Source of the DNA: a bacterium
GTDB lineage: Bacteria > Hinthialibacterota > Hinthialibacteria > Hinthialibacterales > Hinthialibacteraceae
Reading direction: 5' to 3'
Assembly (NCBI GenBank): GCA_963662285.2
Contig: CAXXMV010000002.1
Coordinates: 896,001 to 960,000, forward strand
DNA: 64,000 nt
Below, piece by piece: positions 43,498 to 63,379 of this stretch. The notes under the pieces were generated by a model that did not search any database, was not told the DNA's origin, and was given only the letters and a program-made list of their open reading frames with translations. Position 1 is the stretch's first letter; every line of letters starts with the position of its first letter. The position numbers and the translations under genes were made by a program.

Positions 43498-43607
43498 CTG
43501 CTTTGGGAGCAGTGGGTCGGGAGTTCGAATCTCTCCGCCCCGATAATTTAAGTCATTCATATTTGGTCATTTAGAGTTTTTCTAAATGACCTTTATTTTT
43601 GTCAATT
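43498..43607 (+). repeat. tRNA-Pro(TGG) 3' fragment plus terminator; att-like copy inverted relative to 63242..63351
   Basis: 109/110 identical to the reverse complement of 63242..63351; starts in the anticodon stem; includes a ggtcatttaga/tctaaatgacc hairpin and T-tract. Confidence 0.95.
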
Positions 43608-43692
43608 TAAATAAGAATCCCAATTCTCGAAATATAGCAATTCCCCAACAATTTACCCTACGTGAATATAATTGTGGTGCAGCACTCTTCTA

Positions 43693-44571
43693 TTACTTGT
43701 CGATAAGTGCGTCAAGAAACTTGTAGAATTCCAGAGTCGCCGGATCATCGGGTTTGCCAAGATCATTATTCAACTGGCTGTGGTTACTCTCCCGTTTGCC
43801 GAAGGCCTTGGCCGAGATGCCAGCGTCCTTCAGCACGGCTTCCAGGCGCCCTGCCTGAGCGCGGGTGTCGGGATTGCCGGAAAAGAACAGTAGCAGGAAC
43901 GGCGGTATGCCTTTGTTCTTCGCAACGTGCGTCACAGCTGAGAAGTCGACGTGTTTAACCGGATCGTTCCCAAATTTCTGCCGATGACCAAACGTGAACA
44001 TCTTGCCGCCATAGATAGTCTGCCGATGCTCAGCCGTCATGATGATTTTGGGAATATCATAAGTGTCGCCATCCACCGGTACGCACCCCTTGAGGACTTC
44101 AAACGAGACGCCTTCTTCCTTCAGGTAACGATCATCGATGCAAATTAAAGCAGCTAGTTGAGCGCCAGCGGAATGTCCACCGACAAAGATTCGCTTTGGA
44201 TCGCCGCCATATTGCGCGATATTTCTGTGCACCCAGCCCAGCGATTTGGCGACGTCGCGGATCAGCGCATCCATCTCCACGTCGGGTAAGAGACGGTAGT
44301 TGGTAGATACGAAGACAAATCCTCGCTCAGTCAACACTTTGGGTTTTAGCGCAACATCGCTCTTATCTCCAGTCTGCCATCCACCGCCGTGTATCCAGAA
44401 CATGACAGGCAATCGTCCATCAACCTCTTTTTCGGGTGTGTAAATATCGAGAACCTGTCGTTCATGACCATTCTCGACATAGGGGATATCAGTCGTTAAC
44501 TTCTGCGTACTACCGATGTTGCAGAAGGATAGAAATGAGAGCGCAAAAACAGCGATAAGTTTTAAGTTCAT
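43693..44571 (-). CDS. Secreted alpha/beta hydrolase (HSL-like esterase)
   Basis: HGGGW, NYRL and GHSAG motifs; signal peptide. Confidence 0.9.
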
Positions 44572-44686
44572 GATAAGGAATTCCTTAGTAAAAGAATTTA
44601 TCTACGCGTTCTGATCCGGTATCAATTGTGACATCGTCACACAAGTTTAGCAAGAAACCTCACATTAAGTGTACTGAATCCAAATG

Positions 44687-47600
44687 TTATTGATGTGCGC
44701 GTGCGATATCGAGCTGGGCCTCATGAATGGCGCTACGCTGAATTCTTGGATTCTGTTCTAACGCTTTTTGGAGTTGGGCTGCTGCTTCCTGTGTATTATT
44801 TCTTTCTTCAAGAATCAGAGAATACAAATAATGGCCGATTGCTTTACGGTTGCCCCGGTATTCAAATTCGCCGGAAGTCAGTTTTTGCGCCTGTTTTTCT
44901 AATTGATTGATAATCGAATTGTATTTTTCGCTATTATCTAGCGCCTTATATGCCAATGCTTGATAAAAAGAACCCAGGTGAAGCCGGGTATACTTTTCGG
45001 AAATGATTTGCTTGAGAAATTGCTCAGCCTTCGTTTTTTCATTCATAGCTAAATAAGTCTTGGCTAGATTCCAATTGACATGAGCGCGGAAATCTGGAGT
45101 ACGCGCTGCGACTTCAAGATTTTCGGGATAAAGACAGGCTTCTTCATAATGTTTCAAAGCGGTCTGAAAATCCTTTGCGTCAAAAGCCAGATCCCCGAGT
45201 TTTTGATTGACTTCAACCCACGCATGATGAACGCCGTATTTTCCTTCCCAACTATGGAAATGATGGTTGCGAAGCGTTTGATAGGCTTTGCTCAACCGGT
45301 CCTTGTCTCCTGTTAAGAGCCGCAGATCGATTAAGCGGGAAATGAGGTCATCACGGGTATTAACCACATCGATTTGATTTTCCAGGTTTTGCAAACGTTC
45401 GGAAACTGGTTTTTGCAGAGTTTCACAAATTGTCTCATATTCCAGCAAGGCGCGGGCATCTTGTGGATTTATTTCAAGCGTTTTTTCATAGGCTTGCAGC
45501 GCAGCGTTCAAGTCATGATTCAAAAATCGTTCACCATACCCGATATTGCGCCAGGCGTGTGCATGTCGATCATTATATTGCGCGGCCTTCAGCCAATGCG
45601 CAAAGCCGTCTTGCAACTGTCCACTGGCATAAAGCAGGTTGCCAAGGAACAGATGGGCGTTGGCATCCTGCTCATGATAACGGATGGCCGCTTCCAGAGC
45701 GGCTTTGCCTTCCAGGCGGTGTGGATTGGTGTAGTCAACCAGACCTTTTTGCGCCCGGACATAGAAATCGGCCGCCTGGTCAGAATTCCCCAAAAGTTCT
45801 TGAAAATATCCCCTGAAATAATTCACCATTGGATTTAATTCGGAATCCGCTTTTGTGTTAGAGAACATTGCAAGGATTGAATCTGCCGTTTGGTAAAGAC
45901 CAGCGTTGGCGTAAGCAGTCGCCAATGTCAGATAATTTTGAACTTCATCCCGCATAAGACGTTCCCAGTCTCTTTGCCCTGAACGCTCCGGCTCATTGAT
46001 TGACAATGAAACAAGCATTTTTTCACAAGCAGCCATGAAATTGAGTGGATCAAGTTCCATGGCGTGATCCGCTGCATGGAGCGCTTCGGATCGTTTCCCT
46101 TGATGACGGAATGCCGCCGCTTTTAGAGCGTACAGATCGGCGAATTTTCCGTTTTGGCTGATCGCTTCATCAAGTTTTTCGATGGCCGCCTTGAATTCAC
46201 CTCTGCGCAAGTCGATTTTCGCCAGGTTATAATAGGCGGCTGAGAAGAATCTATAAGTATATGTCGCCCTATAGAACATATCGTATGCTTTGGCGAAATC
46301 TTGGAGACCGACATACGCCAGGCCATTTCCAAAGTAAATGCGTGAATTGTCGTTATCACGTTCCCGGGCGCGATTTAGATATTGCAAGGCTTCATTCCAC
46401 TTGCCCTGCTTGAGAGCAAGATACCCCATTTCTATATTAACCCGCGTATCCCCTGGATCCTTTTTGAGCGCTTCTTGATAATAGGTTAAGCCTTGTTTAG
46501 TCCGTCGAAATTTATCCAGCCATTCGCCTGAGCGGTAGAGTTGATCCTGGTTCATTTTCTTAGGATCGCCCGGATCACGGTCTCCCGGAGGCAAATCAAC
46601 TTGTTTTGGTTTTTGTTGCTGCAACTCGATGCAAAGATTGTCTTGAGCGTCATACACCGCGAGATGAAGATCGTAAACCGTGTCGCCTTCATCGGTTTCC
46701 ACCTCGACTGTATAGGGTTTATCCGGCGCAATCGCTTTTGTTTCGTTCGATAGAATGACGTCAGTCCGGGTGTTTTTCAGCACGATTTTGGCATTAGGTA
46801 CAATACCCGTGGGATAGACGGCGCCAAAAGCTTTCCCGTCTTTCAAATCGGTATTGACTGCGAAATCTTTATTAGCGTTTTGAATGCCGCGAGTATCCCG
46901 AACCGGATACCAGTAATCATGTGCGGTTTTGACTTCGTTCGGCCACATCCAGTGATAATCGGGCTGGTTATCGCTCCAGGCGCCAGCCTGCGGCTCAAAA
47001 TAAGGGCCTCCGCCTTCAGTCAAGATATCTTCCCAAATGCGTCCCGAAGGACCGGAACCCCATGTCCAGAGTTTTTTACCAGGCATGATATGATGATCCG
47101 CCACATGAATCATTCCGCCATTTTCACGATGGTCATAAGTTCCAAACCAGTCGGAAGGGTTGTTAAAAGCGAAATAACTGCTGGCGTTGGGAGAATTTTT
47201 CCACCAGGTTAAATCGATCCCATCGTGGATGGGCCAATTCCAAAACTGGTGTTTTCCATGTCCGGTAACCATATCTCCGGGATACTGAGCTTGCGTCCAC
47301 TCATTCGCATGAGTCGCTGATGTTGCCCAAAATTGGAATGAGTGTTGTTGGTTGGTTGGATTGATAAAAATGTAATCACAGCGGATATTACTACGGCCAG
47401 GGAAAGCGGTCATGCCGACCAGCCACCTCATGCCGTATATCCGATCAGTTTCTCCCACCCAAACCGTCGCGCTGCCATCATCATGGTGAACGATTCGCCA
47501 ATCCACTGGCATAAAGCAGGACGGACGGTGCCCGTGAGGGAAATTCCATTCAATACCTCCGGATATCCATGCACCCGTCATGCCGATCAGGCCGGGTTTT

Positions 47601-47983
47601 ATAGTTTCCTGCCAGTACATCCAGACATAACCATTGGTTTTATCGCGTGCGCCGTGGAGCCTCCCACCGATTTCTGGAAGAATGAGAACTTGTATAAATT
47701 CGTTTTCCAGAAATACGCCTTTGTATGTTTTATCCACTTTATGATTGGTCAATATCTCATTGAGAGTGTAAGGATAAATAGCGCTGCCAGAATCGAAAAA
47801 GTTGGAATGAACTTGAAGCGGACCGGTTTCCCATGTGGGAATGCTAATCTCTTTTTCATAGGCTTTCACTTCAGCATGAACATTGATTTGAAAGAAAATC
47901 GAGAAGGCGAACACAATGAAAATAAACAGATTATTCATAGTATTTTTCCCTTTGCATAGAACAAGGTAGAAGGATATTCTCAT
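44687..47983 (-). CDS. DUF5107 domain + TPR protein
   Basis: LENE...LPEIGGR, IKPGLIG..GAWISGGIEWNFP.GHRP and PGKKLWTWG motifs, many TPRs; true start may be MNNLF. Confidence 0.85.
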   Translation of the reverse strand: MRISFYLVLCKGKNTMNNLFIFIVFAFSIFFQINVHAEVKAYEKEISIPTWETGPLQVHSNFFDSGSAIYPYTLNEILTNHKVDKTYKGVFLENEFIQVLILPEIGGRLHGARDKTNGYVWMYWQETIKPGLIGMTGAWISGGIEWNFPHGHRPSCFMPVDWRIVHHDDGSATVWVGETDRIYGMRWLVGMTAFPGRSNIRCDYIFINPTNQQHSFQFWATSATHANEWTQAQYPGDMVTGHGKHQFWNWPIHDGIDLTWWKNSPNASSYFAFNNPSDWFGTYDHRENGGMIHVADHHIMPGKKLWTWGSGPSGRIWEDILTEGGGPYFEPQAGAWSDNQPDYHWMWPNEVKTAHDYWYPVRDTRGIQNANKDFAVNTDLKDGKAFGAVYPTGIVPNAKIVLKNTRTDVILSNETKAIAPDKPYTVEVETDEGDTVYDLHLAVYDAQDNLCIELQQQKPKQVDLPPGDRDPGDPKKMNQDQLYRSGEWLDKFRRTKQGLTYYQEALKKDPGDTRVNIEMGYLALKQGKWNEALQYLNRARERDNDNSRIYFGNGLAYVGLQDFAKAYDMFYRATYTYRFFSAAYYNLAKIDLRRGEFKAAIEKLDEAISQNGKFADLYALKAAAFRHQGKRSEALHAADHAMELDPLNFMAACEKMLVSLSINEPERSGQRDWERLMRDEVQNYLTLATAYANAGLYQTADSILAMFSNTKADSELNPMVNYFRGYFQELLGNSDQAADFYVRAQKGLVDYTNPHRLEGKAALEAAIRYHEQDANAHLFLGNLLYASGQLQDGFAHWLKAAQYNDRHAHAWRNIGYGERFLNHDLNAALQAYEKTLEINPQDARALLEYETICETLQKPVSERLQNLENQIDVVNTRDDLISRLIDLRLLTGDKDRLSKAYQTLRNHHFHSWEGKYGVHHAWVEVNQKLGDLAFDAKDFQTALKHYEEACLYPENLEVAARTPDFRAHVNWNLAKTYLAMNEKTKAEQFLKQIISEKYTRLHLGSFYQALAYKALDNSEKYNSIINQLEKQAQKLTSGEFEYRGNRKAIGHYLYSLILEERNNTQEAAAQLQKALEQNPRIQRSAIHEAQLDIARAHQ

Positions 47984-48037
47984 TAATACCGATTTTCACA
48001 CGACGCTAAAGAAGAATCAAGATTAAGGTAGCAGATG

Positions 48038-48352
48038 TTTTGCATCCGTATACGAGAACGCAGAATATATTGAAAAGTAGTAACAGGTCAGCCATATGAA
48101 GTAGTAACACTATAACTATGTTTTATACAAGGCTTTTTTATTAAAATTCTCCCCCCAGGTTTGGGGTAGGGATAACGCACTTCAATTGGCTGACCAGTTA
48201 TGAAAAGTATTGATTTACAATTTAATCCAAATTGAAATTAAACATTTTTGCACCAAATGGCTTCTTCACACCTCTTTAATGTCCCTTTGCCAGCCGTTTT
48301 TCGTTTATTGAGCGCTCACCTTGCCGCCTGTGCATTACCCTTAAATCCAACC
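48038..48352 (+). repeat. Degenerate ~200-bp direct repeat, copy 1 (interrupted by a MITE)
   Basis: Shares ttttgcatccg, cagaatatattgaa, aaacattttt, gcttcttcacacc, tttattgag and aaatccaacc in the same order with 53959..54158. Confidence 0.8.
48081..48200. mobile_element. 120-bp MITE-like element
   Basis: Terminal inverted repeats taacaggtcagccatatgaagt / acttcaattggctgaccagtta (19/22); flanking tgaaaagtag/tgaaaagtat; absent from the paralogous copy at ~53992. Confidence 0.75.
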
Positions 48353-48448
48353 AGTATGTTGTTCTTACTAATAAATCCAAAGATTCACTTTTCTATCGTT
48401 TTACAATTTGGATATCTATCACAATTGATAGAAAGAATATTTTAGAGA

Positions 48449-49492
48449 CTATTCGTTTACATTCACAACTAATTTTGAAAATGCAGATTGCCGAATTGCT
48501 TCCATTATCGCCATTACGCGCCGGATATGCGCAGGGGGAACCATTAAAGGTTCTTGTTTCTGAAGTGCGGCGTATAGATTCCTATAAAATAAAATGCCTT
48601 CAGGTACAATTCGATCTGGAACCGGATACTCAATCTCAATTTGTTCCCGGATTCCTTGGGTCTTGGCAACTATACGACGAACTACCGCTGGGCCAATATC
48701 GCTTTCTAGTAAAATAGAACCTTCTTGACCGATCACGTACCACCGGGGAAAATGATGGGGCGTAATGCGGGAATTTTCCGCCTTTACATTCAATCCATCT
48801 TCATACATCAAACTCGCAAAATATGCAGTCTCAACTTCATCTGACCATACAGCAATCTTCGTCTCCGCATAAACAGTAGCAATCGGTCCGGGCGCCAGCA
48901 ATAGAAGTTGATCAATATCGTGGGGGACGCAATCGTAAATCACACCACCGCCATAAGCTTTTTCCTGGCGCCAGGTTGGCCGATATTCCTGCGCCGGATA
49001 AGCCAAGGTGGAATCATATTTCATGCGCCGGGATTCGATTCCCAAGACCTTACCCACAACGTTTTCGGATAGAATTTTTTGAATGCAAGCAAATCCCGGT
49101 TCCCATCTTCGATTCTGAAACAGGCTCAGTAAACGCCCGGATTTTTCGGCTGTTTGCAGAATCCGGGCGGTTCCCGGTAGATCTAACGCCAGGGGTTTGT
49201 CGACCAGTAAATCTTTTTCAGCGGCAAGCGCCTGCAAAGCAATGGTTTCATGACTGGCGGTGGGCGTTGAAATGACGACTAGCCTGATTTGCTCATCAGA
49301 TAGAAACGTATCAAGGTCCGAAAAAATTCGCGCATTAGGAAGTCGGGATGAAGCAATTTCACGCCGTGCAGGAGTCGTATCACAACCAGCGACAATCTCT
49401 AATCCCTCTGTTGCTTCAATACACGGTACGTGAATTTCTAATCCACTTTTACCTAGTCCTACAATTCCCACTCCAATCATATCATTCACCAT
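48449..49492 (-). CDS. Gfo/Idh/MocA-family oxidoreductase
   Basis: GIVGLG, DKPLA, FQNRRW and GGGVIYD..PH.ID motifs. Confidence 0.92.
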   Translation of the reverse strand: MVNDMIGVGIVGLGKSGLEIHVPCIEATEGLEIVAGCDTTPARREIASSRLPNARIFSDLDTFLSDEQIRLVVISTPTASHETIALQALAAEKDLLVDKPLALDLPGTARILQTAEKSGRLLSLFQNRRWEPGFACIQKILSENVVGKVLGIESRRMKYDSTLAYPAQEYRPTWRQEKAYGGGVIYDCVPHDIDQLLLLAPGPIATVYAETKIAVWSDEVETAYFASLMYEDGLNVKAENSRITPHHFPRWYVIGQEGSILLESDIGPAVVRRIVAKTQGIREQIEIEYPVPDRIVPEGILFYRNLYAALQKQEPLMVPPAHIRRVMAIMEAIRQSAFSKLVVNVNE

Positions 49493-50840
49493 TAATATTA
49501 GTTTTCAGGTTCAAGCGGGATTTCATCCACTTGGCTTGTACAAGAAGAAAAAGAAGCATGATGGTTGCCATGACGCTCATGCAGACGCAAAGGATTTTGA
49601 ACGGTTCGAAGCTACCATAATAACGGTATAGCGCTCCGATAACCGGCTCCTGGATGATTGGTCCAATGCTGCCGATACCGTTTATCACGCCGACGGCGGA
49701 AAGCGCGTCTCGCCGTCCCGCTATAGCAATGGCGCCGGCGCCATTAATAATACTGTCTGGACCATAGAGCATGAATCCGACTAATCCATACAAACACGCC
49801 AAAATGAAAGGGCTTCTTGAACCATAAACAATAACCAGAATATAGGCTAACGTCATCCCGATAGTCATCGTCAGACAAAGCAAGCGCCAGTTTCCTTTGA
49901 AGATGCGATCCAGCGCCCATCCTGAAAGAATCACTCCGGCAAAACCAGCCCAATCAAAGATTGACGAATAATACGCAGCGAGCTCGCCGGATAAATGGCT
50001 TTCTACGGTCAAGAAATAAGGCAGCCAGGAATCCAATGAATAGCGCAAAAACTTTAAGGTGAAATAGGTCAGGCCCATACAAACAATCACGGGATTACTC
50101 AACACGCGGAAAAAACCACCGAAAGTCATATTTAAGGCAGGATTAATTTTTTTCTCTTTTTCATTGATTTGCGCTTCATCATCATGGGTTATGATAGGTT
50201 CTAAACCGACATCTTCCGGGCAGTTGCGGTGCCAGAAATAAACAACGAGCCAGATCAAACCCATGCCAACGGAACAAGCCCAAAATGCTGTACGCCATCC
50301 CGTATATCCAAGCATGAATCCAGCCAGAAATTTAACACCCAGGTTTCCTGCGAGGTAATTGGTATTCCAGATTCCCATGATTCGACCGCGTTCCTCTTTC
50401 CGCAGCCAATGCGCCACTCCGCCCACATTGCCAGGCCAACCGCTGGCTTGCGCCAGACCGTTTAAAATCATGAAACCCACAAACGTTTCGAACGAATTGG
50501 CAAAGCCGAAAATGATGTTACATCCCAAGGAAATAGCCATCCCCGTCAGTAAAAGAATACGGGAGCCAAGTTTCCGCCCTAACATACCATTAATAAACTG
50601 GCCTACCATGTAGGCAACTAAAAATGCTGTCCAAATATGCGCTACACCCAATGCATCAAGTGAAAATTCGTCGCCGATACTTTTTTTACATACTGAAAAT
50701 GCTTTCCGGCAAAGATAGTATCCTGCATAGCTGGAATAGGTGGCTATAAGAATCCGCCATCGCCACTTACTTTGCTCTTTTTGCAAAGGCGGCAGTGTTT
50801 TCGATATGTTACCTGTCTTATGATTGGTTGCAGAATTCAT
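49482..50840 (-). CDS. MFS transporter, organophosphate:Pi antiporter (GlpT/UhpT-like)
   Basis: YYLCRKAF, Q..GWP, ERG..MGIW, PEDVGL and YGPDS motifs. Confidence 0.88.
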   Translation of the reverse strand: MNSATNHKTGNISKTLPPLQKEQSKWRWRILIATYSSYAGYYLCRKAFSVCKKSIGDEFSLDALGVAHIWTAFLVAYMVGQFINGMLGRKLGSRILLLTGMAISLGCNIIFGFANSFETFVGFMILNGLAQASGWPGNVGGVAHWLRKEERGRIMGIWNTNYLAGNLGVKFLAGFMLGYTGWRTAFWACSVGMGLIWLVVYFWHRNCPEDVGLEPIITHDDEAQINEKEKKINPALNMTFGGFFRVLSNPVIVCMGLTYFTLKFLRYSLDSWLPYFLTVESHLSGELAAYYSSIFDWAGFAGVILSGWALDRIFKGNWRLLCLTMTIGMTLAYILVIVYGSRSPFILACLYGLVGFMLYGPDSIINGAGAIAIAGRRDALSAVGVINGIGSIGPIIQEPVIGALYRYYGSFEPFKILCVCMSVMATIMLLFLLVQAKWMKSRLNLKTNINGE

Positions 50841-50855
50841 AGTTTTGAGTCAGAT

Positions 50856-52001
50856 TTATAATGATTTCAATATTTCCTGAACAGCCCAAATAAGGTAGCC
50901 TACTTCATCCTCTGTGTAACCTGGAAAAATCGGCAATCCAAAAAGGGTTTGAGCCACTTGCTCCATGATTGGACAGGGTTGAAAATCCCCAACCGCCTTC
51001 GCAATAACTGGAAAATCGTACCAAGGTTCATATTGAAAAGATGTTTCGATGCCGTAATCAGTCAATATTTTTTGTCGCAACGCTTCACGCGTTGCACCAA
51101 ACACAGAAGAGTCAAGCCGACAGGGGTACATATGATACGAATGCGTTATGCCTTTCGGCTCAAAAGGCGTGATAAATCCTTCAATACCTTGAAAGGCTTT
51201 GGACATTCTTCGCCCGATTGCTCTGCGCTTTGCATTAACGCTATCCAAGCGTTTCAGTTGTTCGATCCCAATCGCGCATTGCACCGCTGATAGCCGATAG
51301 TTGCTTCCCGCTTGTTCATCATGATCGTAGTTGCGCAATTTCCTGGCGCGTTCAGCATATTCCTGGTGAATGGTAGTCAGCATTCCTCCTTCACCTAGTG
51401 TGCTTATGTTCTTTTGCGATTGAAAACTAAAACATGAAATATCGGCCCATGCCCCGCATTTCACATCCTTATACACCGAGCCTAGTGCATGAGCCGCATC
51501 TTCGAGAACCGGGATTCCATAGTTATGGCCGATTCGCATTACGGCATTCGCATCAAGCGGCAGGCCCGCGTAGTCAATCACATAAATCGCCTTGGTGTTT
51601 GAGGTAATACTCGCTTCGAGTAAATTCAAATCAACGTTTAAACTATCTGGATCGATATCCACTGGAACCGGCCGCGCTCCAGCCAAGACGATTGGCAACA
51701 CCGTAGCCTTAAACGTCAGTGCAGTAACAAGGACTTCATCACCCGGTCCGATGTCCAATAGCCGAGTTGCCAATTCCAAAGCAGTGCCGCCCGAACTCAC
51801 CGTAATCGCGTGCTTCACGCCTATATACGCGGCGAATTGGTTTTCAAACTCAACGATCTCTGGAGAACGACGGTCCAGTGGACGGCGTTTTTCAATCGCG
51901 TCTCGAATAATCTCTACCAATACCCTTTCTTCTTCTTGGCCAAAAATTGCACCGGTATAGGGCCAGGGAATCTCAAATTGCTTCGGGGTGTAAGTTTGCA
52001 T
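50856..52001 (-). CDS. DegT/DnrJ/EryC1/StrS PLP aminotransferase
   Basis: SSGGTAL, EDAAHA, SFQSQKNISTLGEGG and NYR motifs. Confidence 0.93.
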   Translation of the reverse strand: MQTYTPKQFEIPWPYTGAIFGQEEERVLVEIIRDAIEKRRPLDRRSPEIVEFENQFAAYIGVKHAITVSSGGTALELATRLLDIGPGDEVLVTALTFKATVLPIVLAGARPVPVDIDPDSLNVDLNLLEASITSNTKAIYVIDYAGLPLDANAVMRIGHNYGIPVLEDAAHALGSVYKDVKCGAWADISCFSFQSQKNISTLGEGGMLTTIHQEYAERARKLRNYDHDEQAGSNYRLSAVQCAIGIEQLKRLDSVNAKRRAIGRRMSKAFQGIEGFITPFEPKGITHSYHMYPCRLDSSVFGATREALRQKILTDYGIETSFQYEPWYDFPVIAKAVGDFQPCPIMEQVAQTLFGLPIFPGYTEDEVGYLIWAVQEILKSL

Positions 52002-52077
52002 TATTTATCGGATCGTTCGATTTGGTGATATTGAGGTTAAAAATATTATCTTATCATAGAAGATGAACGCTAAATCA

Positions 52078-53652
52078 CTAATATAAAAATTCCAATTCTA
52101 TTGCGCGGTAGACTCTGGGAATGCGATCCGTCTGAATGGTATCGAGTCCCTGATGAATTGCCTGGCGGTAATGCTCAACGGTTTCATGTTCTCCCATAGC
52201 GTCGGAAAATAGTTGGATTTGTTTTTGATGCGCCTGGGTTATCAGTGATTTTGTGAGGATAGACCAACTTGTATCAAAAGCGAAAGGCTTGATTCGCTCA
52301 GCGCGAGGATTCAAATCGGCTGGTTGTCCCAGGGAAGGCATTAGCTTTGCGTTCGGCGCCAAGCGGCGTATTTCCAAGAGAACTTCAGGCGATCCATAAA
52401 AAACTGCGCCATCGAGTTTTTGGTAGGTTCGTAAAACGGCAATAAGTTTTTCGGCGTCTATATCTTTGCAGTCCACATAAAGATTCACGTCACGATGATT
52501 TGGTTCAGCAATGGTTTGAGAACTACTTTGATTGAGCAATATACAAATTTCTTCGATGGTGGGTACTTTCTCATTTTTATAACCAACGCCGAACCATGCC
52601 CCGGCGGAAAGCGCTCGAAGATCATCAAAAGAGATTTGGTTCACCGGGCCGGTTCCATTAGTAGTCCGATCAAGGGTTCGGTCGTGGAGAGAAATTAAAT
52701 GGCCGTCTTTGGTCCTACGCACGTCGATTTCAAAATAATCCACTCGCAGTTCAATGGCTTTTTTATAAGCGGCTAAAGTATTTTCCGGGGCGAACTGGTT
52801 GGCGCCTCGATGAGATGCAACTTTGACGGGACGCTTTCCACCGGTTCGGTAATCAAGGTATTCAGATAATACGTTTTCTCCATAATCGGTGTGAATCCAG
52901 TCTACGCCCATATTGAAGCAATTACGCCAAACGCGAGGATTGTCGCGTTTTCCAAGGGTTTGCGCCTGGACGATCACCCCGGATTTATGAAAGGCCTGAA
53001 CCAAGTCAGCTGTGAGCAAATCGGCATGAATTTCTACCGATGCTGGATGAAGCCGTTCTATCCAGTATGCCGCATCTAACCGCTCATTGATACTTGGCAT
53101 CACAGCAATCTTCCCATTTGACAACCGATTGATCTCTTCTAATTTTTCCGGGGAATCGAAAACTACAACCTGTCGTTCCATCCCTGCTTCGATTATCTCA
53201 TTAACTAATTGCTGCGGATCAGTAGTTTTACAATCGAGGTATAGGTTTATCTTCCCCTGGCAGAATTTCAGCGCTTCATTCAGGGTTGGAATCCGGGCGC
53301 CTGCATAACGAGGCGCAAACCAGGCGCCTGCATCTAATTGTCTTAACGCTTCTAAATCAATATCAGCGATGCGTCCAGTGCCATTCGTCGTTCGGTCGAG
53401 TGTGGCATCATGTAAAAGCATATGACGCCCGTCGCCGCTTAAACGAACATCGATCTCAACCCATTCTATTTCTGCGTCAATCGCGGCCTGCAAAGCAGGG
53501 ATTGTATTTTCTGGAGCGGATTCGGTAATCCCCCGATGCACAATAACCTGTAATCCTCTTGGCGGGATTAACGGTTGAAAAAAATCAGCTGAATAAGACG
53601 ATAATGAAAGGAATAAAAAACTAGTAATAAGGCAATACTTGAATCGGAACAT
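52078..53652 (-). CDS. Secreted glycerophosphodiester phosphodiesterase with two GDPD domains
   Basis: Two HRG...PENT...EIDV...HD.TLDRTT units; signal peptide. Confidence 0.9.
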   Translation of the reverse strand: MFRFKYCLITSFLFLSLSSYSADFFQPLIPPRGLQVIVHRGITESAPENTIPALQAAIDAEIEWVEIDVRLSGDGRHMLLHDATLDRTTNGTGRIADIDLEALRQLDAGAWFAPRYAGARIPTLNEALKFCQGKINLYLDCKTTDPQQLVNEIIEAGMERQVVVFDSPEKLEEINRLSNGKIAVMPSINERLDAAYWIERLHPASVEIHADLLTADLVQAFHKSGVIVQAQTLGKRDNPRVWRNCFNMGVDWIHTDYGENVLSEYLDYRTGGKRPVKVASHRGANQFAPENTLAAYKKAIELRVDYFEIDVRRTKDGHLISLHDRTLDRTTNGTGPVNQISFDDLRALSAGAWFGVGYKNEKVPTIEEICILLNQSSSQTIAEPNHRDVNLYVDCKDIDAEKLIAVLRTYQKLDGAVFYGSPEVLLEIRRLAPNAKLMPSLGQPADLNPRAERIKPFAFDTSWSILTKSLITQAHQKQIQLFSDAMGEHETVEHYRQAIHQGLDTIQTDRIPRVYRAIELEFLY

Positions 53653-54328: not shown

Positions 54329-55510
54329 ATGAGAATCCCTGTAAAAAAATTGGGCGCTTCTAAGTTTCCTTTATTCTTTCTTGTAACTTATGCCATCTTA
54401 CTGCTATCCACTAATTTGAATACATTTGCACAGGTTGAAAAACTTGAAGTTGGTCCATTCAAACTTGGTGGAGCAGTACGTGCGAACTTGTTTTATAAAG
54501 ATTGGAATCACTTAGAACGATTGGATTTGGATACTGTACGTTTGAACCTTGAGTTCGAAATGCAGGATTTCATTGGCTCCGCCGAATATCGATATTATTA
54601 CTATCAGGACATCGAGCGAAGTACTCACATGTTACATCATAGTTGGCTGGGATATCGTTTTACAGAATCAGACCAAATACATCTCGGCGTTCATCAGGTT
54701 CCTTTCGGCATACTACCCTACGCATCGCATAACTGGTTTTTTCAACTCCCTTATTATGTTGGATTGGAAGACGATTACGATCTTGGAGCAAAATACATAC
54801 ACCAGGATGACAATTGGAACTTCCACCTTGCGTATTATGCTGAAGATGAAGGGCATTATAACGGAAGAAGCAACGACAGCGCTCGATATTCATACGATCT
54901 GGTTACTGAAGGCCTCGCACAAAATGAAGAAAAAAATCAGTTCAACCTGCGATACGCTTATACCTGGACTCATTCTGAAAATCACGCCAGCGAATTGGGC
55001 GTATCGTTACAATTAGGTCAAATCCACAACCGCTTGACGCATGACGACGGCAATCAATACGCAGTCGCTCTACATCTCAACGAAACATGGAATCGATGGA
55101 ATGCCATGTTCGAAATAATCCGCTATGAAAATTCCTTGCGTAATCCTATAGGTCAACGTGATGATTTCGTGTTAATGGGGGCTTATGATTTTCCATATCA
55201 AGTCGCCAGCAGCGCCAGCATATACACAGTCGGTATAGGTTACACAATTCCAATTAAAGATTCGTTTGTAGATTCAGTGACATTTTATGATGATTTCAGT
55301 TTTATGCATAAAGACAAAGCAGATTTTCTCAGCAGTTGGCAAAATGTTGTAGGAGCATCCGTGTCCGCCGGGAACTTTTTCATATATTTCGACGTGGCGT
55401 CCGGTCGAAATCATTCCTGGTTAGGTCCTGATTGGACTGAATCTTTTTCTTCTGGTGGAGACGATAACTGGCATACCCGTTTTAATATTAACATCGGTTT
55501 CTATATTTAA
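54329..55510 (+). CDS. Outer-membrane beta-barrel / putative porin
   Basis: Signal peptide, amphipathic beta strands, QVPFGILPYASHNWF, C-terminal RFNINIGFYI. Confidence 0.75.
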   Translation: MRIPVKKLGASKFPLFFLVTYAILLLSTNLNTFAQVEKLEVGPFKLGGAVRANLFYKDWNHLERLDLDTVRLNLEFEMQDFIGSAEYRYYYYQDIERSTHMLHHSWLGYRFTESDQIHLGVHQVPFGILPYASHNWFFQLPYYVGLEDDYDLGAKYIHQDDNWNFHLAYYAEDEGHYNGRSNDSARYSYDLVTEGLAQNEEKNQFNLRYAYTWTHSENHASELGVSLQLGQIHNRLTHDDGNQYAVALHLNETWNRWNAMFEIIRYENSLRNPIGQRDDFVLMGAYDFPYQVASSASIYTVGIGYTIPIKDSFVDSVTFYDDFSFMHKDKADFLSSWQNVVGASVSAGNFFIYFDVASGRNHSWLGPDWTESFSSGGDDNWHTRFNINIGFYI

Positions 55511-55547
55511 GGTGCGTTTATGAATTTTTTCCCTTTATCTATTATCA

Positions 55548-56297
55548 TCAGGTTGGCTTGGAAACAGTAATAATCGGATCAATCATTCCCATATCGCCCA
55601 AATCCCGAAGTGTTTCTAAATGTTTAATATTCAATGTAATTCCTTCAACAACAAAAATTTGATTACCATCTTTGCTACACACCGGACGCGCTAGAACCTG
55701 TCCAGATTTGGCGTCATTGATATTAATGGTCATGACATCGTGAGAAATAATCACACATTGCCCGGATTCTTTTACTATAGAGGAATCTTCAACCTGCGAT
55801 GACGCGTTATGTTCCAGGATATCCCGAATACGCGTATCAACATCCAAGGCTTCGTATTCGGATATCTCTTTCAAACTGGAATCATCCATTGGATCATGCG
55901 TTTTGAAGATGCGCAGAAGCCGGTCGGTCAAAGTTTGTTTGGTAACCGGTTTCAAGACAAAAGAGTTTACGTCCAGTTGAATGGCCAGCTCCACCAAGGC
56001 GCTGTCACTGTGACCGGTTAACATCAATACGGGCAGATTACGACGGATGTTTTTATGGCCGGTACGGATATGCTTCAACAACAGCAGTCCATGCATAATA
56101 GGCATGTTGAAATCGGCAATTACGCAATGGATGCTGTGCGATCTTTCTTCTAACAGGCTAAGAGCTTCTATACCATTGGTTGCGCTATAAGTTTGCGGAT
56201 CGCCCATGTTTTTTAACAAACGCAAAACTGTAATCCTGGAGAAATTATGGTCATCTACAATTAGAAATGTACGGGTGGGAAATGTAATACCGCCCAT
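55548..56297 (-). CDS. Response regulator (REC plus short C-terminal module)
   Basis: IVDD, DFNMP, LTG and KP motifs. Confidence 0.9.
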   Translation of the reverse strand: MGGITFPTRTFLIVDDHNFSRITVLRLLKNMGDPQTYSATNGIEALSLLEERSHSIHCVIADFNMPIMHGLLLLKHIRTGHKNIRRNLPVLMLTGHSDSALVELAIQLDVNSFVLKPVTKQTLTDRLLRIFKTHDPMDDSSLKEISEYEALDVDTRIRDILEHNASSQVEDSSIVKESGQCVIISHDVMTININDAKSGQVLARPVCSKDGNQIFVVEGITLNIKHLETLRDLGDMGMIDPIITVSKPT

Positions 56298-56302
56298 CGG
56301 TT

Positions 56303-59300
56303 TTACCTCTTATTTTTTAGAGTTACGATAAAATTTTCAACTTCGCTGTATTGTTCTCGGGCGGTTTGAAATTCCGAACGAAGATCATCCCACGACTGCT
56401 CCATAGCGCCCAGTTGTAATTGTTTCATTGTTTCAGATAAAGTCATAGCGGCTGCGTTCCCGGCTCCACCTTTGGCGCTATGCGCGTTATCGCGAAGCAT
56501 TGAACGGTCTTCTGATTCAAAGGCTATTTCGATATTTTGCATGAGTCCATCAAAGTCCTCAACAAAATATTCGAGCATTTCTACCAATCCTTCATCATCC
56601 TCTTCCCCCAGGATTTCCTTGAGTTGTTCTAAATCGACCGGTGGAGAGACCTCTACATTGGAATTGGATTCGGCGGGTGGAGAAGATTCGTCCATTCGGA
56701 AAGGCTCAGTCAGGATCGGCGTTTCTTCCCGTTCGTCAGGCGCCTCCACAGGAATTTGATCCTGGGGAAGCCAGTGAGAGAGTTTTTGGGCAAGGCTTTC
56801 GAGAGTAATCGGCTTGGTTGCGACATCGTCCATTCCTGCTTTAAAGCAGGCTTCGACATCTTCTTTCATTACATTCGCGGTCATAGCGATTATAGGCATG
56901 CGTGTGCCGCGTTCGGCTTCCCACTCACGATAGGCCTGGGCGAACTCGTACCCGTTCATTTCCGGCATATTAATATCAGTGAAGATGAGAAGATAAGTTC
57001 CGTTTTGGGCGCGTTGAAGGCCTTCCCGCCCATTGTTCGCCGTCTCACATTGTAAACCGAATGCATCAAGTTGTTTTTTAGCAACCTGCCGGTTCATGGG
57101 CAGGTCGTCAATTACTAATATGGGCGTTTCGAATTTCGCCGCCCGAATCCTCTGAAGAATTTCATTGGAATCACCCGCAGATTCCCCACCCTCATAAATG
57201 AATTCTATATTCAAATACTTGTGAAGCTGGTCGAATATCTCAGATTCCTTGAATGGTTTGCGCAAGAAATCATCGCAACCCGCTTCAATCACCTTCTTAC
57301 GGTCATCTTCAAATGCGCTGGCCGTAAGAGCAACAATGATAGGCCCGATTCCCTCTGATTCTCTCTTAATAATACGGGTGGCTTCGATTCCATCCATGAC
57401 CGGCATTAGTAAGTCCATCCATATCAAAGATGGTTTCTGTTCCCGCCACAAACGAATGGCTTCTTCACCATTCACCGCTTCAATTACAATAAAGCCCACC
57501 CTCTCCAACAATTCTGTAAGTAATTTCCGATTTTCTTCTTTGTCATCAACTACCAGAAGCGTATGGGCGGGCTGTCCTGGCTGGATGCCGGTTACGCGAG
57601 TTGGAGTAAAAATTGACTGATCCTTCACATCTCCGGCGCCAACCACAGGCACGGAAATATCAAATCCGAAACAAGTGCCAACATCCACCTTGCTTCGAAC
57701 CGTAAGTTCCCCTCCCATAATCCTGACGAATTCCCGGCTGATGGCTAGGCCTAAGCCCGTTCCCTGTTGGGAATTCACACCACTGGAAGTTTGTGAAAAC
57801 GCTGAAAAGAGTTTCCCTATTTCATCTTCAGCAATACCGACTCCCGTATCTTCCACTTCGATAATTAAAGAACCTTTGCTTTCATTCTTACTTTCAAAAC
57901 CAGCTCGTAAACTTATGCCGCCCTCATGAGTGAATTTTACGGCGTTGCCCAGCAGGTTTACGATGATTTGACGAATTTTCTTCTCATCACCTCGTATATA
58001 GCGCGGGACTTCACCAACATGCTCGATCAATAATGAAAGCCCCCGCTCCTCCACGCGCATGCAAAACATATCTTCCATATCTTTGATTACGCGATGCAAA
58101 TCGAAATTGGATTCATCTAGTTGGATGCGTCCCGCTTCGATTTTAGACATATCCAGAATGTCGTTGATCAGGTTTAAAAGGTGGTCGCCGCTGCGGCAGA
58201 TAATATCAAGGTTCTCCCGTTGCTCGCTGCCCAATACCGGATCCCGTTGTAATAACTGGGAAAAACCGATTATGGCATTCATGGGAGTACGGATTTCGTG
58301 AGACATGTTAGCGAGAAAGGAACTCTTGGCATGGTTGGCGTCTTCAGCGGCTAATCGTGCATGAACCAGTTCTTCTTCCGCTTTTTTACGCGCATGAATT
58401 TCATGCGAAAGCCGCCGGTTCCACCATAATCCTATAACCAATAAAACCACAAAACCGCCAACAATGCGGAAAATAAGGCCGTAATCAATCCTTTGAATAA
58501 AAACATCATTGCGATCCCAATGGCTGAGGATATCACGGTGCTCTTCCGGTTCCATAGACTGAAGGACTTTGTTGATAATATCGCGAAGCAGGGGCCAGTC
58601 TTGCCGTACGGCCAGGGTGATTTCCATATCAATTCCCAGCGTTCCCGCAATTTCTATATTGTGCATGCCCAACTCTTTAATCATGTAACTGCCTAATCCA
58701 AGCGCACAAACCAGCGTATCAATCTGTCCGCTTGAGACGGCTTTCAAACCTTCTTCTATATTCTCGACCTCCTGAAACTTGATATCAGGCCAAGTCTTAT
58801 ATAGACGGTTCAGGTAGCCGTAGCCCTTTATGACAGCGATGCTCCCACTAGAAACTTGATTGAGATCAGTGACAAAGATATCACTTTTTTTACGGATTGC
58901 AGCGATGGGATTCGATATATAAGGCTTTACGAAATCAAACTTGGATTGGAGAGTTGTGGAACCGACAGTTTGAGAAATAATATCTACATCACTATTCAGC
59001 GCCATCTCAATCGCTCCACTCCAACTGGGCGGGGATATACGCTGAATGGTTATTCCCAAACGCTCTTCGATAAGAGTGAGATAATCATTAACAATTCCGA
59101 TACATTGACCTTCACCGGTAAAAGATTCGTATGGAAGCCACATCGGAGCGCCAGTAAAACGGATATCCGGATGCTCTTCCAGCCAGTCTTTTTCCTCATC
59201 CGTTAGTTCAATGGTCTTCGCGTCGGCTTGAATTTTTGCCGCCAGGCTGAACGGGATCCAATTACTTTTGATGCGGTTGTGATCGGCGGCTGAAAGATCA

Positions 59301-60040
59301 TCCAATACCACGCTGATGATTTCATGCAATTCCGGCCAGTCTTTACGTATGCCCATGTGAACATCAAGTGAGTCGAACGGAGCGGGGACAGTGGCTTCAA
59401 TCCCGCTAAGTGAGTATTCGTTAATCGCATAACCAGTCGAGTTAATATCACCAATATAAGCAGAAGCCGTTCCCGTAATGAGTGTAAGCAATGCTTCCCG
59501 GATCGAGAGTCGGGTGATTATGGGAATAGCAGGATGCCCGCTTTTCATTTCCTCCACGGTGCTGTATCCTTCTACCAGAGCAACCGTTCTGCCTTTCAGG
59601 TCGTCAAAACTCTGTATCTCCTGTTGCCCGGCAAGTGTGAAAACAAAATTTGTTACCCTGTTATAGGAGGGTGTATAGAGCAAAAATGTTTCCCGCTCTG
59701 AATTACGGTACAGCGCTGGTAAAATATCAACTTTTCGATCTCTCGCCAATTGTAGTAGCGTATTCCAACTTTTTTCAATATGGAATTTAAATTGAAGGCC
59801 TGTGCGTTTTGAAATGATTTTCAGGTATTCTTCCGCAATCCCCTGGTACCGTCCCTGGTTATCGATAAAGTCATAGGGCGCCCAGTCGGTTTCACAACCA
59901 ACGGTGATTGTATGGTTTTCTTCGAGCCACGCTTGGGCTTCGGGTGAGAGAGATTCAAGAAATGCTGAATCAGGTTCAGAAAAGGAAACAGAGATTGATA
60001 ATGTGGCTATAGTAACAGATAGAAGCAGAATTCGAGTCAC
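56303..60040 (-). CDS. BvgS/EvgS-like hybrid sensor kinase (2 periplasmic SBP domains, HisKA, HATPase, 2 REC, HPt)
   Basis: WAPY and WLPY SBP units, [24 protein letters not shown], two receiver domains, AHSAKG. Confidence 0.93.
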
Positions 60041-60960
60041 GATGCCTCCTGAAGAAGGATATCAATAGCATAATAATAATTTAGTCTCAATACGGTATAA
60101 TATCTTGTAATACTAGGTGATAGAATATCAGGGATTTTCGATTTTGAATAGGAATATCACTCCTTGGATCTAATGATTATCTCAAAATTTGAAATTCCCT
60201 ATTTAGTAAAGGAGTAAGGCTAAAATTTTCAAGTATAATGATTATGTAAACGCATGCCTTGATATCTAAGATTTTTAATTCTAATAAATTTTGATTTAGA
60301 TCTTATCTAGGTATCGCGAAGTTACAACCAATTTCTACTGATGTATCCGTAGATAAGGCGTTTTAATATGTAAGCAAGTCTAAGTGATCATAACTAATTG
60401 ATTAGGGTATATTTGTCATTACTACAATTCGTTACTATGGATCAGAATGCTCCAGGATCAGACTTCCTGAACTCACCCGTGGTTCTCGCGGGATTTTGTT
60501 AGGATAATCTGGTTGGGAAGCAAATCATCCTGAGATTGAGAGACTCTCCAGTGCGTGAGGGAGTTAACAAATTCCGCAGACCTTATTACCTCTATTCGCA
60601 TCAGGCGAAGGATTAATATCCGAGTTGATTTCCTATCAAAAATGATTCTCCCTTCCTACCAAAATTCGCATTTGTTGGATGCGAGTTGTTCCCGCTCATC
60701 AAGCCCACAATATAAAATCTTTCAAGATCAATGGAATTTCCGCTTGAATTATATCCATATTGGTTCCATTCTTAGATATGTGTGATACAAAGATGAAATA
60801 ATGTAAGAATATAACCTCAATAATAGCAGGAAAGTATTAATTGTTGGATGTAAGTTTGACATCTATAGATAGTATGTATTTGGTCTGTTGCATACTCATA
60901 ATGAATTCTGATCAACTCGCCTTCATTGGCAACAATCAATAATCCAGGACGGAGAGAGCC

Positions 60961-62946
60961 ATGTTGCTCATGCTTACATTTATTTTTTTGTTAATAGTGG
61001 GATCGATTGCAGAAGCCGAACCGACGATATTCAAGTCATGGGAGTTTGATAGGTGGAACGATCAACAGGGCTGGAATGTACCGTCAGCGTTAGGTGGATC
61101 CGTTATGGGAAGTGGGATTTGGTTGCATATCCAAATGTTGCCGGAACATACGCAGGAGTTAACGTGGCGTCAACTCATTTGGCTTCCGCATCCTCCGTTA
61201 TCTTTGGTATCACCCTCAGGTCTCGGTATAGATACGGCATACGCCACGAAGGTTAGGTTGCGTGTCTTGAACCAATCTCCTGAAACGGATGGCTTGTTCA
61301 TCTGGCGCACGACATCAGCACCGGATGAGAATGCGGGAACCGTGCGTTTCACAATGCAACCTATGTGCGACAAGTGGCAGGATGTAGTGGTCGACATGGA
61401 TAACCGATGGTCGGGTGTTGTAGACCAAATACGCATATTACCGGCGCTGATTGGAACTTCGGGCGACATGTGGATCTCGCGGATTGCCCTGACTGATGGG
61501 GCTCCGGCCCCGACAAAGGCGCGTCCGGATGTGATTAGCGCTACTGTCATTCCCCGGATTACGCTGCCAGATATTGACCAGTCGGCATTTGCCGATGCGT
61601 TCAAGGTGCTTGACGAATGTCTGATCAACAATGCGCCTGTACATGGTTTTACCGAGCCGGTCATGGGGCCAGGTGGCGCCTATGGGGAAAACTGGTGGCA
61701 ACTGGATTCGTCTTTGACGTGCGATGGGGCAAAGTGGGTCAACCAATCTTTCGCAGAAGGAGTGCTTAGGGGATTCGCTTCAGTGCAATCGCAAAATCCG
61801 GATGGCAGAATCGATCTGTGGGGTGGCGCCCCAAGCCGGGGAATGCCAGCCTTGGCGAGTAGCATCCCACGTCTTTTTGAGGTGGGCTATCGGATAGCAC
61901 GGCGCAGCAGCGATGACGGAGTAAGGCGATTGGCGTTTGAGGTTCTCAGCAAGTATCTGGATTGGTGGCTTTCTCCAGTCAAGCATGATACTCAAACGGG
62001 TTTGATTACCTATGCTTTTGAGGAAACCTTTTGTGAGCCTATCGATACTCCGCAGACAATGGCTCCAGTAGATCTGCAGGTGGCCGTTGCGATTGGATGC
62101 TCCTATGTGAGTAAACTTGCGGAGTGGGTGGGCGAGATCGATGCGGCGAATCGATACCAGAAGGCTTTTGAATACCTGAAGAATGCCATCAATAAGTATT
62201 GTTGGGATGAGGAAGACGGAGCATACTACAACTTTAATGTAAAGACGCTGACTCGCAGTAAACGTCTGATCGTATCGACGTTTGATCCATTACGACTTGG
62301 CATCGCACCTGATGAACGCGTCGCGCGTCTCTTGCAGAAACTGACTGATCCAGCACTTTTCAATTGGGGAATCCGACCGCTAACGAGCCTTGCGAAGACG
62401 GAGCAGGACTATGTGGAGGCTGAAGGTACCTACGACGGTCGGGCATGGTTTGGCGACATCTGGACGATGCGCAATATACCGGTAATTTTTGGTCTGCGAG
62501 ATTGCGGACATGACGAACTCGCAGCCCAACTGGCGTGGGACACCGTAAGAATTTTTAACGCAAATTACGCCGAATATGTGACGCCATCCAAAGGTAAGGG
62601 AGAGGGTGTCATGAGATACGGTTGGTCGGCTTCTCAGTACATTCAGGCGGTGATTGAGCATGTTTTTGGCATTGACTATGATGCAGTGAATAAGCGCCTG
62701 AGCATTGCACCGCTTCTGGTCCCTGAACTTCGTAGGTGTCGTATTGCGATCAAGGGATTACGTTTGCCGACGCCAGAAAACTCGCGGCTATCGGTCGTGA
62801 TTGCTCCACACGAAAATGGTGGAATCCAAGTTGATGTGGCGGTGGAGTCAGTACCAATTGGATTATCGCTAGTCATTCGACTCGACGGTGAAGTACAAGA
62901 GATGCCGCTTGGTTCCGAACAACGCATTGTTATTAAACAGCAGTAA
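60961..62946 (+). CDS. Secreted (alpha/alpha)6 glycoside hydrolase (MGH1/GH63-trehalase-like)
   Basis: WQLDS, APVDL, CWDEEDGAYY, W.G.IW, AEY and GWSA motifs; signal peptide. Confidence 0.75.
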   Translation: MLLMLTFIFLLIVGSIAEAEPTIFKSWEFDRWNDQQGWNVPSALGGSVMGSGIWLHIQMLPEHTQELTWRQLIWLPHPPLSLVSPSGLGIDTAYATKVRLRVLNQSPETDGLFIWRTTSAPDENAGTVRFTMQPMCDKWQDVVVDMDNRWSGVVDQIRILPALIGTSGDMWISRIALTDGAPAPTKARPDVISATVIPRITLPDIDQSAFADAFKVLDECLINNAPVHGFTEPVMGPGGAYGENWWQLDSSLTCDGAKWVNQSFAEGVLRGFASVQSQNPDGRIDLWGGAPSRGMPALASSIPRLFEVGYRIARRSSDDGVRRLAFEVLSKYLDWWLSPVKHDTQTGLITYAFEETFCEPIDTPQTMAPVDLQVAVAIGCSYVSKLAEWVGEIDAANRYQKAFEYLKNAINKYCWDEEDGAYYNFNVKTLTRSKRLIVSTFDPLRLGIAPDERVARLLQKLTDPALFNWGIRPLTSLAKTEQDYVEAEGTYDGRAWFGDIWTMRNIPVIFGLRDCGHDELAAQLAWDTVRIFNANYAEYVTPSKGKGEGVMRYGWSASQYIQAVIEHVFGIDYDAVNKRLSIAPLLVPELRRCRIAIKGLRLPTPENSRLSVVIAPHENGGIQVDVAVESVPIGLSLVIRLDGEVQEMPLGSEQRIVIKQQ

Positions 62947-63305
62947 TCCCTATTGTCACAACAGTCCAAAGGAATGCTGGCTAAAGTCTCCCCTTGTCTA
63001 GGACCATGGATTAACCATTTTCATGAAGAATCCTGGTATGTTGGATACGCTCCGAATACAATTCGTAAGAAGCATAATTTCGGAAATGAAGATAAAAGGC
63101 TCATTCCTTTAATGCGATAATGTTATTAAGTATATTGAGGCAGAGATCACAAAATGGAAAGTTCACTCTGATATATCAATCTTGTCTGGATCAAGACTGG
63201 TTATTAATCAGTAAATTGCACGATCATTGCACAATATGGATAATTGACAAAAATAAAGGTCATTTAGAAAAACTCTAAATGACCAAATATGAATTACTTA
63301 AATTA

Positions 63306-63379
63306 TCGGGGCGGAGAGATTCGAACTCCCGACCCACTGCTCCCAAAGCAGTTGCGCTACCAGGCTGCGCTACGCCCCG
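63306..63379 (-). tRNA. tRNA-Pro(TGG), CCA not encoded
   Basis: CGGGGCGTAGCGCAGCCTGGTAGCGCAACTGCTTTGGGAGCAGTGGGTCGGGAGTTCGAATCTCTCCGCCCCGA cloverleaf. Confidence 0.97.

Follow-up and report, generated by a model that had tools for sequence, protein, structure and literature searches.

Inverted Copies of a tRNA-Pro 3' End in a Bacterial Genome: Probable Remains of a Decayed Integration Hot Spot

Introduction

Genes for tRNA are textbook targets of integrases, and integration into them leaves a restored gene and a displaced fragment. The stretch of DNA considered here, called the window, comprises 64,000 nucleotides (nt) of a bacterial genome (G000:C2:896001-960000); the genome, G000, of 7.29 Mb in eight contigs, is 92.5% complete with 3.5% contamination. 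The window contains one intact tRNA-Pro(tgg) gene and, on the opposite strand, a second copy of its 3' part, the two copies bounding a block of genes. The pair is probably what remains of a decayed integration hot spot at the tRNA-Pro(tgg) gene, with the displaced fragment turned round by at least one later rearrangement, and neither a working island nor a switch.

Among the closest described systems are the tyrosine-integrase islands of the type collected by Islander, a procedure that rejects candidates with a fragment in the opposite orientation and records tandem arrays (PMC4383910). The locus resembles such islands in its tRNA target, in the start of the copied sequence in the anticodon stem, in the restored 3' half, in the displaced fragment, and in an integrase remnant beside the tRNA gene; moreover, in relatives the site is a hot spot, and here two integrase remnants suggest successive insertions. 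It differs from them in the inverted orientation of the fragment, in retaining no more than a 69-codon remnant of the integrase, and in intervening DNA that is not element-like.

In the archaeon Thermococcus kodakarensis, a full and a partial tRNA-Arg(TCT) lie on opposite strands, an arrangement attributed to integration followed by chromosomal inversion (PMC9897764). The window likewise holds full and partial copies of one tRNA on opposite strands; those of T. kodakarensis are about 179 kb apart, whereas those of the window, in a bacterium, are 19.6 kb apart, with an insertion sequence (IS) and a synteny break at one end. This kind of scar has already been described, and the window is a further example of it. 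The integrase of pTN3 from the Thermococcales catalyses inversion between inverted tRNA genes, as shown both in vitro and in culture, and 104 bp are reported to suffice for its homology-like reaction (PMC5495485). In the window, too, inverted tRNA-derived sites bound a stretch of DNA, with a repeat of comparable size (110 nt). The pTN3 integrase is active and its inversion is demonstrated, whereas no cognate active integrase was found for the window.

The Inverted Repeat Pair

A repeat search of the window returned a single inverted pair, 43498-43607 (+) and 63242-63351 (-), of 110 nt and 99% complementary, with 109 of the 110 positions identical and 19,634 nt between the arms. The copy at the intact tRNA gene is called copy a and the left one copy b (Table 1). 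Both are inside one 1.85-Mb contig; genome-wide the repeat is present at only these two places, with four distinct flanks around them. The repeat begins at position 30 of the tRNA, in the anticodon stem, and extends 64 nt past its 3' end; this 64-nt trailer consists of an 11-bp hairpin and a U-run (-16.2 kcal/mol, z -4.4, with 0 of 200 shuffled sequences as good). The earlier note on this DNA had described an inverted repeat running from the anticodon stem of the tRNA-Pro through its terminator, both copies pointing into the block, and the search reproduced it to the base, the inward direction being visible at each end. It had also stated that the tRNA would be whole in either orientation after a flip, which the ends of the repeat confirm.

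ARAGORN calls only one intact tRNA-Pro(tgg), at the right end, and none at the left, so copy b is a fragment. The identity starts inside the tRNA gene at a sublocation typical of integrases and the 3' end of the gene is restored, as in tRNA islands; in these the displaced fragment has the orientation of the tRNA, whereas here it is inverted. Exact scans for the 27-nt terminator hairpin gave no match in metagenome contigs and none in genome contigs, and no near-identical strain or free attachment site turned up in them. In the acceptor stem of the tRNA-Pro(tgg) the window has a C-G pair where all 14 relatives (L023-L036) have T-A; since the change is compensated on both halves, the restored 3' half matches the 5' half of the lineage itself.

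The Integrase Remnants

Immediately within the block, 38 nt (63198-63235) have a match at C1:642431-642468, where an integrase gene next to a tRNA-Thr(tgt) in the same genome has its 3' end. When the 422-aa product of that gene was used as a tblastn query against the whole window, matches were obtained at 63001-63117 and 63116-63211 (+; E 1.4e-8). The remnant as a whole corresponds to residues 354-422 of the C1 integrase at 41% identity with one frameshift, and the integrase of another element, on C6, fits it better, with 21 of 32 C-terminal residues identical. Where the intact integrases have HY the remnant has HN, and the Pfam match to the C1 protein ends there (residue 377); the Y of HY is presumably the catalytic tyrosine.

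Between the stop codon of the remnant and the tRNA lies the sole good match in the window to a motif that occupies the corresponding place at C1 and C6; it is presumably an arm-type site of the integrase. An exact scan of species-representative genomes for the motif gave 10 matches. In four of them (L075, L078, L079, L080) an integrase homologue of 47-61% identity ends at the motif, and the convergent tRNAs are Trp, Gln, Arg, and Trp, respectively; the other six, without integrase homologue or tRNA, are probably chance matches. The literature consulted on inverted att sites and tRNA fragments, in which no search was aimed at this integrase family or its motif, yielded no paper on either.

A second decayed integrase fragment lies further inside the block, on the strand opposite to that of the first remnant. 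The sequence 60445-60642, which includes it, is 86% identical at the nucleotide level to C4:85565-85760, and the likeness of the C4 remnant at this level concerns only this fragment, not the one next to the tRNA. An origin of both fragments from a single gene, broken in two by an inversion of 2.55 kb (60451-63000), was considered and rejected, as they overlap by about 15 codons of different sequence. Remnants of two different integrases fit successive insertions at a hot spot.

No intact recombinase was found among the open reading frames (ORFs) and Pfam matches of 38000-64000, and the nine PF00589 matches of the genome all lie outside the window. Where a tRNA island would contain an intact integrase, and an invertible segment a recombinase gene within or beside it, only remnants are present. 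The absence of an integrase claimed in the earlier note therefore holds for an intact gene and fails for decayed ones, at 63001-63214 (+) and 60451-60563 (-).

The C4 locus (C4:85204-85760, L070) consists of a tRNA-Pro(ggg) and, after it, the remnant of an integrase, heavily decayed, with five stops in 90 codons. This remnant ends in the same 88-nt dispersed repeat as that at 60556-60642 of the window, and the 199-nt junction in common is 86% identical. The 88-nt repeat, of which the genome has 12 further copies, mostly about 95% identical, resembles a miniature inverted-repeat transposable element.

Sister Elements and the tRNA-Pro(tgg) Locus in Relatives

Two intact elements related to the remnant were found in the genome. 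The one on C1, of about 41 kb, is located at the tRNA-Thr(tgt) gene (C1:642297-642369), followed by the 422-aa integrase (C1:642455-643720); its direct repeat, of 65 nt at C1:683518-683582, begins at tRNA position 29 and reaches 20 nt past the tRNA end. The one on C6, of about 62 kb, is located at a tRNA-Arg(tct) gene (C6:283827-283901) with an adjacent 413-aa integrase, and its direct repeat (C6:346038-346080) begins at tRNA position 33 and ends about 18 nt beyond the tRNA. The earlier note had stated that integrase islands leave direct repeats of the tRNA 3' end; this is so at C1, at C6, and in the relative G009. Neither integrase reaches the PF00589 cut-off of 27.1 bits, the scores being 24.9 for C1 and 19.5 for C6; in a whole-genome PF00589 scan the C1 integrase obtained 26.4 bits, or 27.4 with its neighbours.

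The C6 integrase (element C6:283827-346098, beginning at L069) is 61% identical to that of C1, and the element-side arms of the two elements are nearly identical despite the different target tRNAs. The C1 element (C1:642297-683582; L067, L068), apparently intact, encodes a family-A DNA polymerase with 3'-5' exonuclease, an NrS-1-like primase-polymerase, a sigma-54-type AAA protein, and a type I restriction-modification system. Five large histidine-kinase paralogues are encoded by the C6 element (C6:330315-345685).

The tRNA-Pro(tgg) locus was compared in 14 loci of relatives; the nearest genome, G016, belongs to a different genus. A DUF255 homologue is present beside the tRNA-Pro(tgg) in 13 of the 14, as in the window, where the DUF255 protein (Pfam PF03190) is thioredoxin-like, and the pairing of the tRNA gene with a divergent DUF255 gene is ancestral. 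The DNA downstream of the tRNA gene is different in each of the 14. Among 21 selected ORFs from these regions scanned against Pfam, PF00589 integrases were found directly downstream of the tRNA-Pro(tgg) in three loci (G005, G009, and G010), accompanied in G010 by an ArdC-like gene. G009 carries an 8.4-kb integrase-bearing islet with a direct repeat from the same anticodon stem to about 24 nt past the tRNA end. The comparison of this locus and the search for integrases, both proposed in the earlier note, thus revealed variable downstream DNA and integrases, and the latter indicate that the site is an integration hot spot in this family.

The three integrases at this site (L025 in G005, L030 in G010, and L036 in G009) come from other, Pfam-positive families. 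A similar trailer of about 20 nt after the tRNA is common to several of the relatives. The proteins of the block had no good match downstream of the tRNA-Pro in the 14 loci, the sole match being a kinase domain with 27% identity (L026), so that there is no basis for calling one orientation of the block or the other ancestral.

The Left Boundary

Copy b is adjoined, after a spacer of 41 nt, by an IS of the IS1634 family, the one to which the earlier note refers. Its transposase scores 239 bits against NF033559 (cut-off 100) and its terminal inverted repeats are perfect; a sister copy with 98% identity, C1:913323-915296, has a perfect 5-bp target duplication (TTTTA), as is usual for the family, unlike the window copy, whose flanking 5-mers, TTGAA and TTTAA, do not match and are alike at four of five positions. 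An origin of the junction by recombination with the C1 copy was rejected: the C1 copy keeps its 5-bp duplication intact, and so has not recombined since its insertion. Lacking a perfect duplication, the IS in the window may mark a rearrangement junction.

On the outer side of the IS lies a full-length, conserved gene for a PMT_2-type glycosyltransferase. In five of 12 PMT_2 loci of relatives the downstream neighbours map to C1:824434-831138 of G000, not to the window; the remaining seven have differing neighbours or a contig end. Since the neighbours of PMT_2 in relatives map to C1, synteny is broken directly after the PMT_2 stop codon, within the IS and the 41 nt. No remnants of an IS or a tRNA were found at the ancestral partner of PMT_2 (C1:831139 onward). 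The distal arm motif, located about 135 nt from the core in both the C1 and C6 elements, is missing beyond the IS, and the flanks of the IS are therefore probably not contiguous element DNA. A 15-nt stretch of the 41-nt spacer, at the same distance from the core, is common to it and the C1 and C6 element arms, a weak likeness seen by eye.

Origin of the Arrangement

According to the favoured explanation, one element or several, of an integrase family that targets tRNA genes and resembles tyrosine recombinases, would have inserted at the tRNA-Pro(tgg) gene, perhaps twice. Insertion would have restored the 3' half of the tRNA and displaced a copy of it, leaving an attL-type junction at the intact gene, made up of the tRNA, a 73-nt spacer, the motif, and the last 69 integrase codons. 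Copy b, 19.6 kb away, would then have been inverted by at least one later inversion or other rearrangement, and deletions would have removed nearly all of the element DNA. The IS1634 element would sit at the outer junction or have landed on it later, and the genes between the copies would be ordinary chromosomal genes or a mosaic. With its sites inverted and its integrase gone, the region cannot excise; the 110-nt repeat could permit occasional flips by RecA or general homologous recombination, with the tRNA unaffected.

In favour of a decayed integration site, the repeat starts (position 30) near the starts of the direct repeats at C1 (29), C6 (33), and G009 (the same stem), and the module of tRNA, spacer, motif, and integrase occurs intact twice in the genome, at C1 and C6. 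The integrase remnant converging on the tRNA, the motif shared with other genomes, the use of the site by integrases in relatives, the IS with its unmatched flanks, the synteny break, the genome-like GC content of a block devoid of mobility genes, and the T. kodakarensis precedent (PMC9897764) point the same way. Several points weigh against this explanation. The relatives compared, none of which is of the same genus or species, show no ancestral arrangement, and for that reason the rearrangement history is a model; its exact path is inferred, as relating the locus to the canonical state requires at least two rearrangements. The identity extends 64 nt past the tRNA, as opposed to about 18-20 nt in the intact elements, which calls for the extra assumption either of two related elements with the same attachment arm or of a site that captured the host trailer. 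The 41-nt spacer is only weakly like an element arm, and the IS, with a flank match of four in five, may simply have inserted at a later time and not have caused the rearrangement. As the C1 and C6 integrases score below the PF00589 cut-off, the label of tyrosine recombinase leans on context, i.e., the tRNA genes and direct repeats. While the repeat, the integrase remnants, the motif, the intact elements with their direct repeats, the IS, and the synteny break are observed, the order and number of the rearrangements, the status of the block as host DNA or as cargo, and the arm-site role of the motif are likewise inferred.

The suggestion of the earlier note that an island had been locked in place by a later inversion comes close to this explanation, being supported by the integrase remnant with its motif and by the att-like start of the fragment. 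Its other parts fared less well: the integrases are decayed, not absent, the block bears no mark of cargo, its gene order not being that of relatives, and the IS1634 element and the synteny break abut the fragment. What looked like a strange island, lacking an integrase and bounded by inverted att sites, is better read as ordinary decay of a tRNA integration hot spot, with pseudogenised integrases, an IS, and inversions. It is a caution for island finders, which reject fragments on the opposite strand outright, and it documents a divergent integrase family with scores under the Pfam cut-off, with an 18-nt motif at the stop codon, several tRNA targets, and occurrence in several genomes.

Alternative Explanations

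That the block is the true cargo of a single degraded island, of which only the distal attachment site has been inverted, as the locked island of the earlier note would literally imply, is unlikely. The block does lie exactly between the attL-type junction and the fragment, and the large histidine kinases of the 62-kb C6 element show that sensing genes can be cargo in this family; in addition, the GH63 module beside the integrase remnant has a guanine-plus-cytosine (GC) content of 50% and occurs twice in G016. Such an origin, however, requires that no more than about 150 nt were inverted, with one breakpoint coinciding precisely with the end of the repeat. The GC content of the block is 44.7%, and 44.2% outside the GH63 module (43608-60450), as in the genome (44.0%), the module being the only deviant, so that foreign composition, expected between the sites of a tRNA island, is wanting; so are element genes, as Pfam revealed metabolic, transport, and sensing genes only, and none for mobility, replication, transfer, or element regulation. 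A mosaic is suggested by the second integrase fragment, which lies within the block in a different orientation.

The neighbourhoods in the nearest relative bear on the same question. The orthologues of the esterase, the DUF5107 protein, the GDPD phosphodiesterase, and the GH63 protein are located on different contigs of G016, and the fetched flanks of its esterase and GH63 copies contain no other gene of the block. The GH63 module is about 85% identical at the nucleotide level to the two G016 copies, the homology stopping at 62969/62987. Judged by these comparisons, the genes of the block are not conserved as a unit, nor does anything identify them as cargo. The hydrolases, transport, and sensing genes listed as cargo in the earlier note are present, while their status as cargo was not borne out, given the host-like GC content and the lack of mobility genes.

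It is very improbable that the block is a live invertible segment, existing side by side in both orientations through recombination of its inverted half-sites by RecA or, in trans, by a resident integrase of this family. The identity of 109 of 110 positions amid heavy decay is what gene conversion during flipping would yield, two intact integrases of the family are encoded in the genome, and in Thermococcus the pTN3 integrase inverts DNA between inverted tRNA-derived sites (PMC5495485). However, the intact integrases belong to tRNA-Thr and tRNA-Arg, the anticodon arms of which are unlike that of tRNA-Pro, and the local integrase is only a 69-codon remnant; the segment inverted in trans proposed in the earlier note has no support, no cognate integrase having been found. 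Nor would a flip switch a promoter or a gene end: unlike the ends of switching segments, the inner ends of the repeat face the 3' ends of convergent genes, the esterase on one side and the GH63 gene with the integrase remnant on the other. If live inversion did take place, it would be a bacterial counterpart of the integrase-driven chromosome flipping of the Thermococcales, and flipping would maintain the near-identity of the copies.

As regards orientation and assembly, the stretch was found in one sample (runs X1 and X2) at a word depth of about 6-10, only as short-word contigs ending at the repeat. Over 43425-63424 these comprise the pieces 43578-48109 and 63242-63351 (110 nt); none bridges the repeat, and no strand-changing joint is listed. 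Words of 31 letters cannot report a flip, because the one position at which the copies differ is 17-18 nt inside the outer end of the repeat. The short-word contigs have no alternative letter at either copy, which fits two real copies without proving them.

Still less probable is an integrase-free origin of copy b as a second, inverted tRNA-Pro(tgg) gene truncated by deletion. Copy b includes the terminator, as a duplication would, and the IS adjoins it; its truncation, however, falls in the anticodon stem, a few positions from where the att repeats begin in the integrase-bearing elements used for comparison, the 41-nt spacer that separates it from the IS is not made of tRNA sequence, and relatives have a single tRNA-Pro(tgg) at the DUF255 locus. 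Least probable of all is an assembly artefact, also raised in the earlier note, with a wrong orientation of the block or one wrong junction, which the low depth in the only sample found, the ending of short-word contigs at the repeat, and the completeness and contamination of the genome would favour, against which stand the single-base difference between the copies with no alternative letter at either, the four distinct flanks, the position of the repeats inside the 1.85-Mb contig, and the fact that even a wrongly oriented block would keep the inverted repeat.

Genes of the Block and Further Repeats

The features of the locus and the genes between the two copies are collected in Table 1.

Table 1. 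Features in and around the block bounded by the inverted tRNA-Pro(tgg) copies (positions in the window).
Feature	Position	Strand	Basis or remark
PMT_2-type glycosyltransferase gene, full-length, conserved	39873-41495	+	Relatives align to residues 536-540 of 540
IS1634-family IS, transposase 41561-43297 (-), 14-bp perfect terminal inverted repeats	41497-43456	-	NCBIfam NF033559
Spacer between IS and fragment, 41 nt, unique in genome	43457-43497	+	
Repeat copy b: displaced tRNA-Pro 3' fragment and the same 64 nt as in copy a	43498-43607	+	Hairpin 43565-43591
Esterase	43693-44571	-	Pfam
DUF5107-TPR protein	44687-47983	-	Pfam
GFO/IDH/MocA oxidoreductase	48449-49492	-	Pfam
MFS transporter	49482-50840	-	Pfam
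DegT aminotransferase	50856-52001	-	Pfam
GDPD phosphodiesterase	52078-53652	-	Pfam
Unknown ORF, 393 aa	54329-55510	+	
Response regulator	55548-56297	-	Pfam
Hybrid histidine kinase	56303-60040	-	Pfam
Second decayed integrase fragment, about residues 321-368, with stops	60451-60563	-	Joined to 88-nt dispersed repeat at 60556-60642
GH63/trehalase-like glycosidase module, ORF 60961-62946	60859-62987	+	Pfam; abuts integrase remnant
Integrase pseudogene remnant, last ~69 codons, converging on tRNA	63001-63214	+	tblastn and alignments; frameshift 63116/63117
Conserved motif, two GTGCAAT units, between tRNA and integrase stop	63215-63233	-	One mismatch to pattern
Repeat copy a: tRNA 3' part from position 30 and 64 nt, with U-run	63242-63351	-	Terminator-like hairpin 63258-63284
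Intact tRNA-Pro (anticodon tgg)	63305-63380	-	ARAGORN; divergent from DUF255 gene starting at 63684 (+)

The esterase protein is 86-88% identical in five other genera (G001, G005, G009, G010, and G016), and the core PMT_2 protein next to it only 47-59% across the family, which suggests unusual conservation or lateral spread of the esterase. The GH63 copies of G016 are located on its contigs C20 (L038) and C129 (L039); the latter aligns in three pieces, suggesting frame disruptions.

Further repeats were noted in the window. A two-part short repeat (87 + 49 nt) at 48080-48200 occurs at nine other places, and the upstream regions 48038-48279 and 53959-54084, both within the block, resemble each other at 81-85% over stretches of 41 and 69 nt. 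Outside the block, 38871-39045 is occupied by an intergenic repeat of about 170 nt, of which there are roughly a hundred copies (78-92% identity) in seven of the eight contigs.

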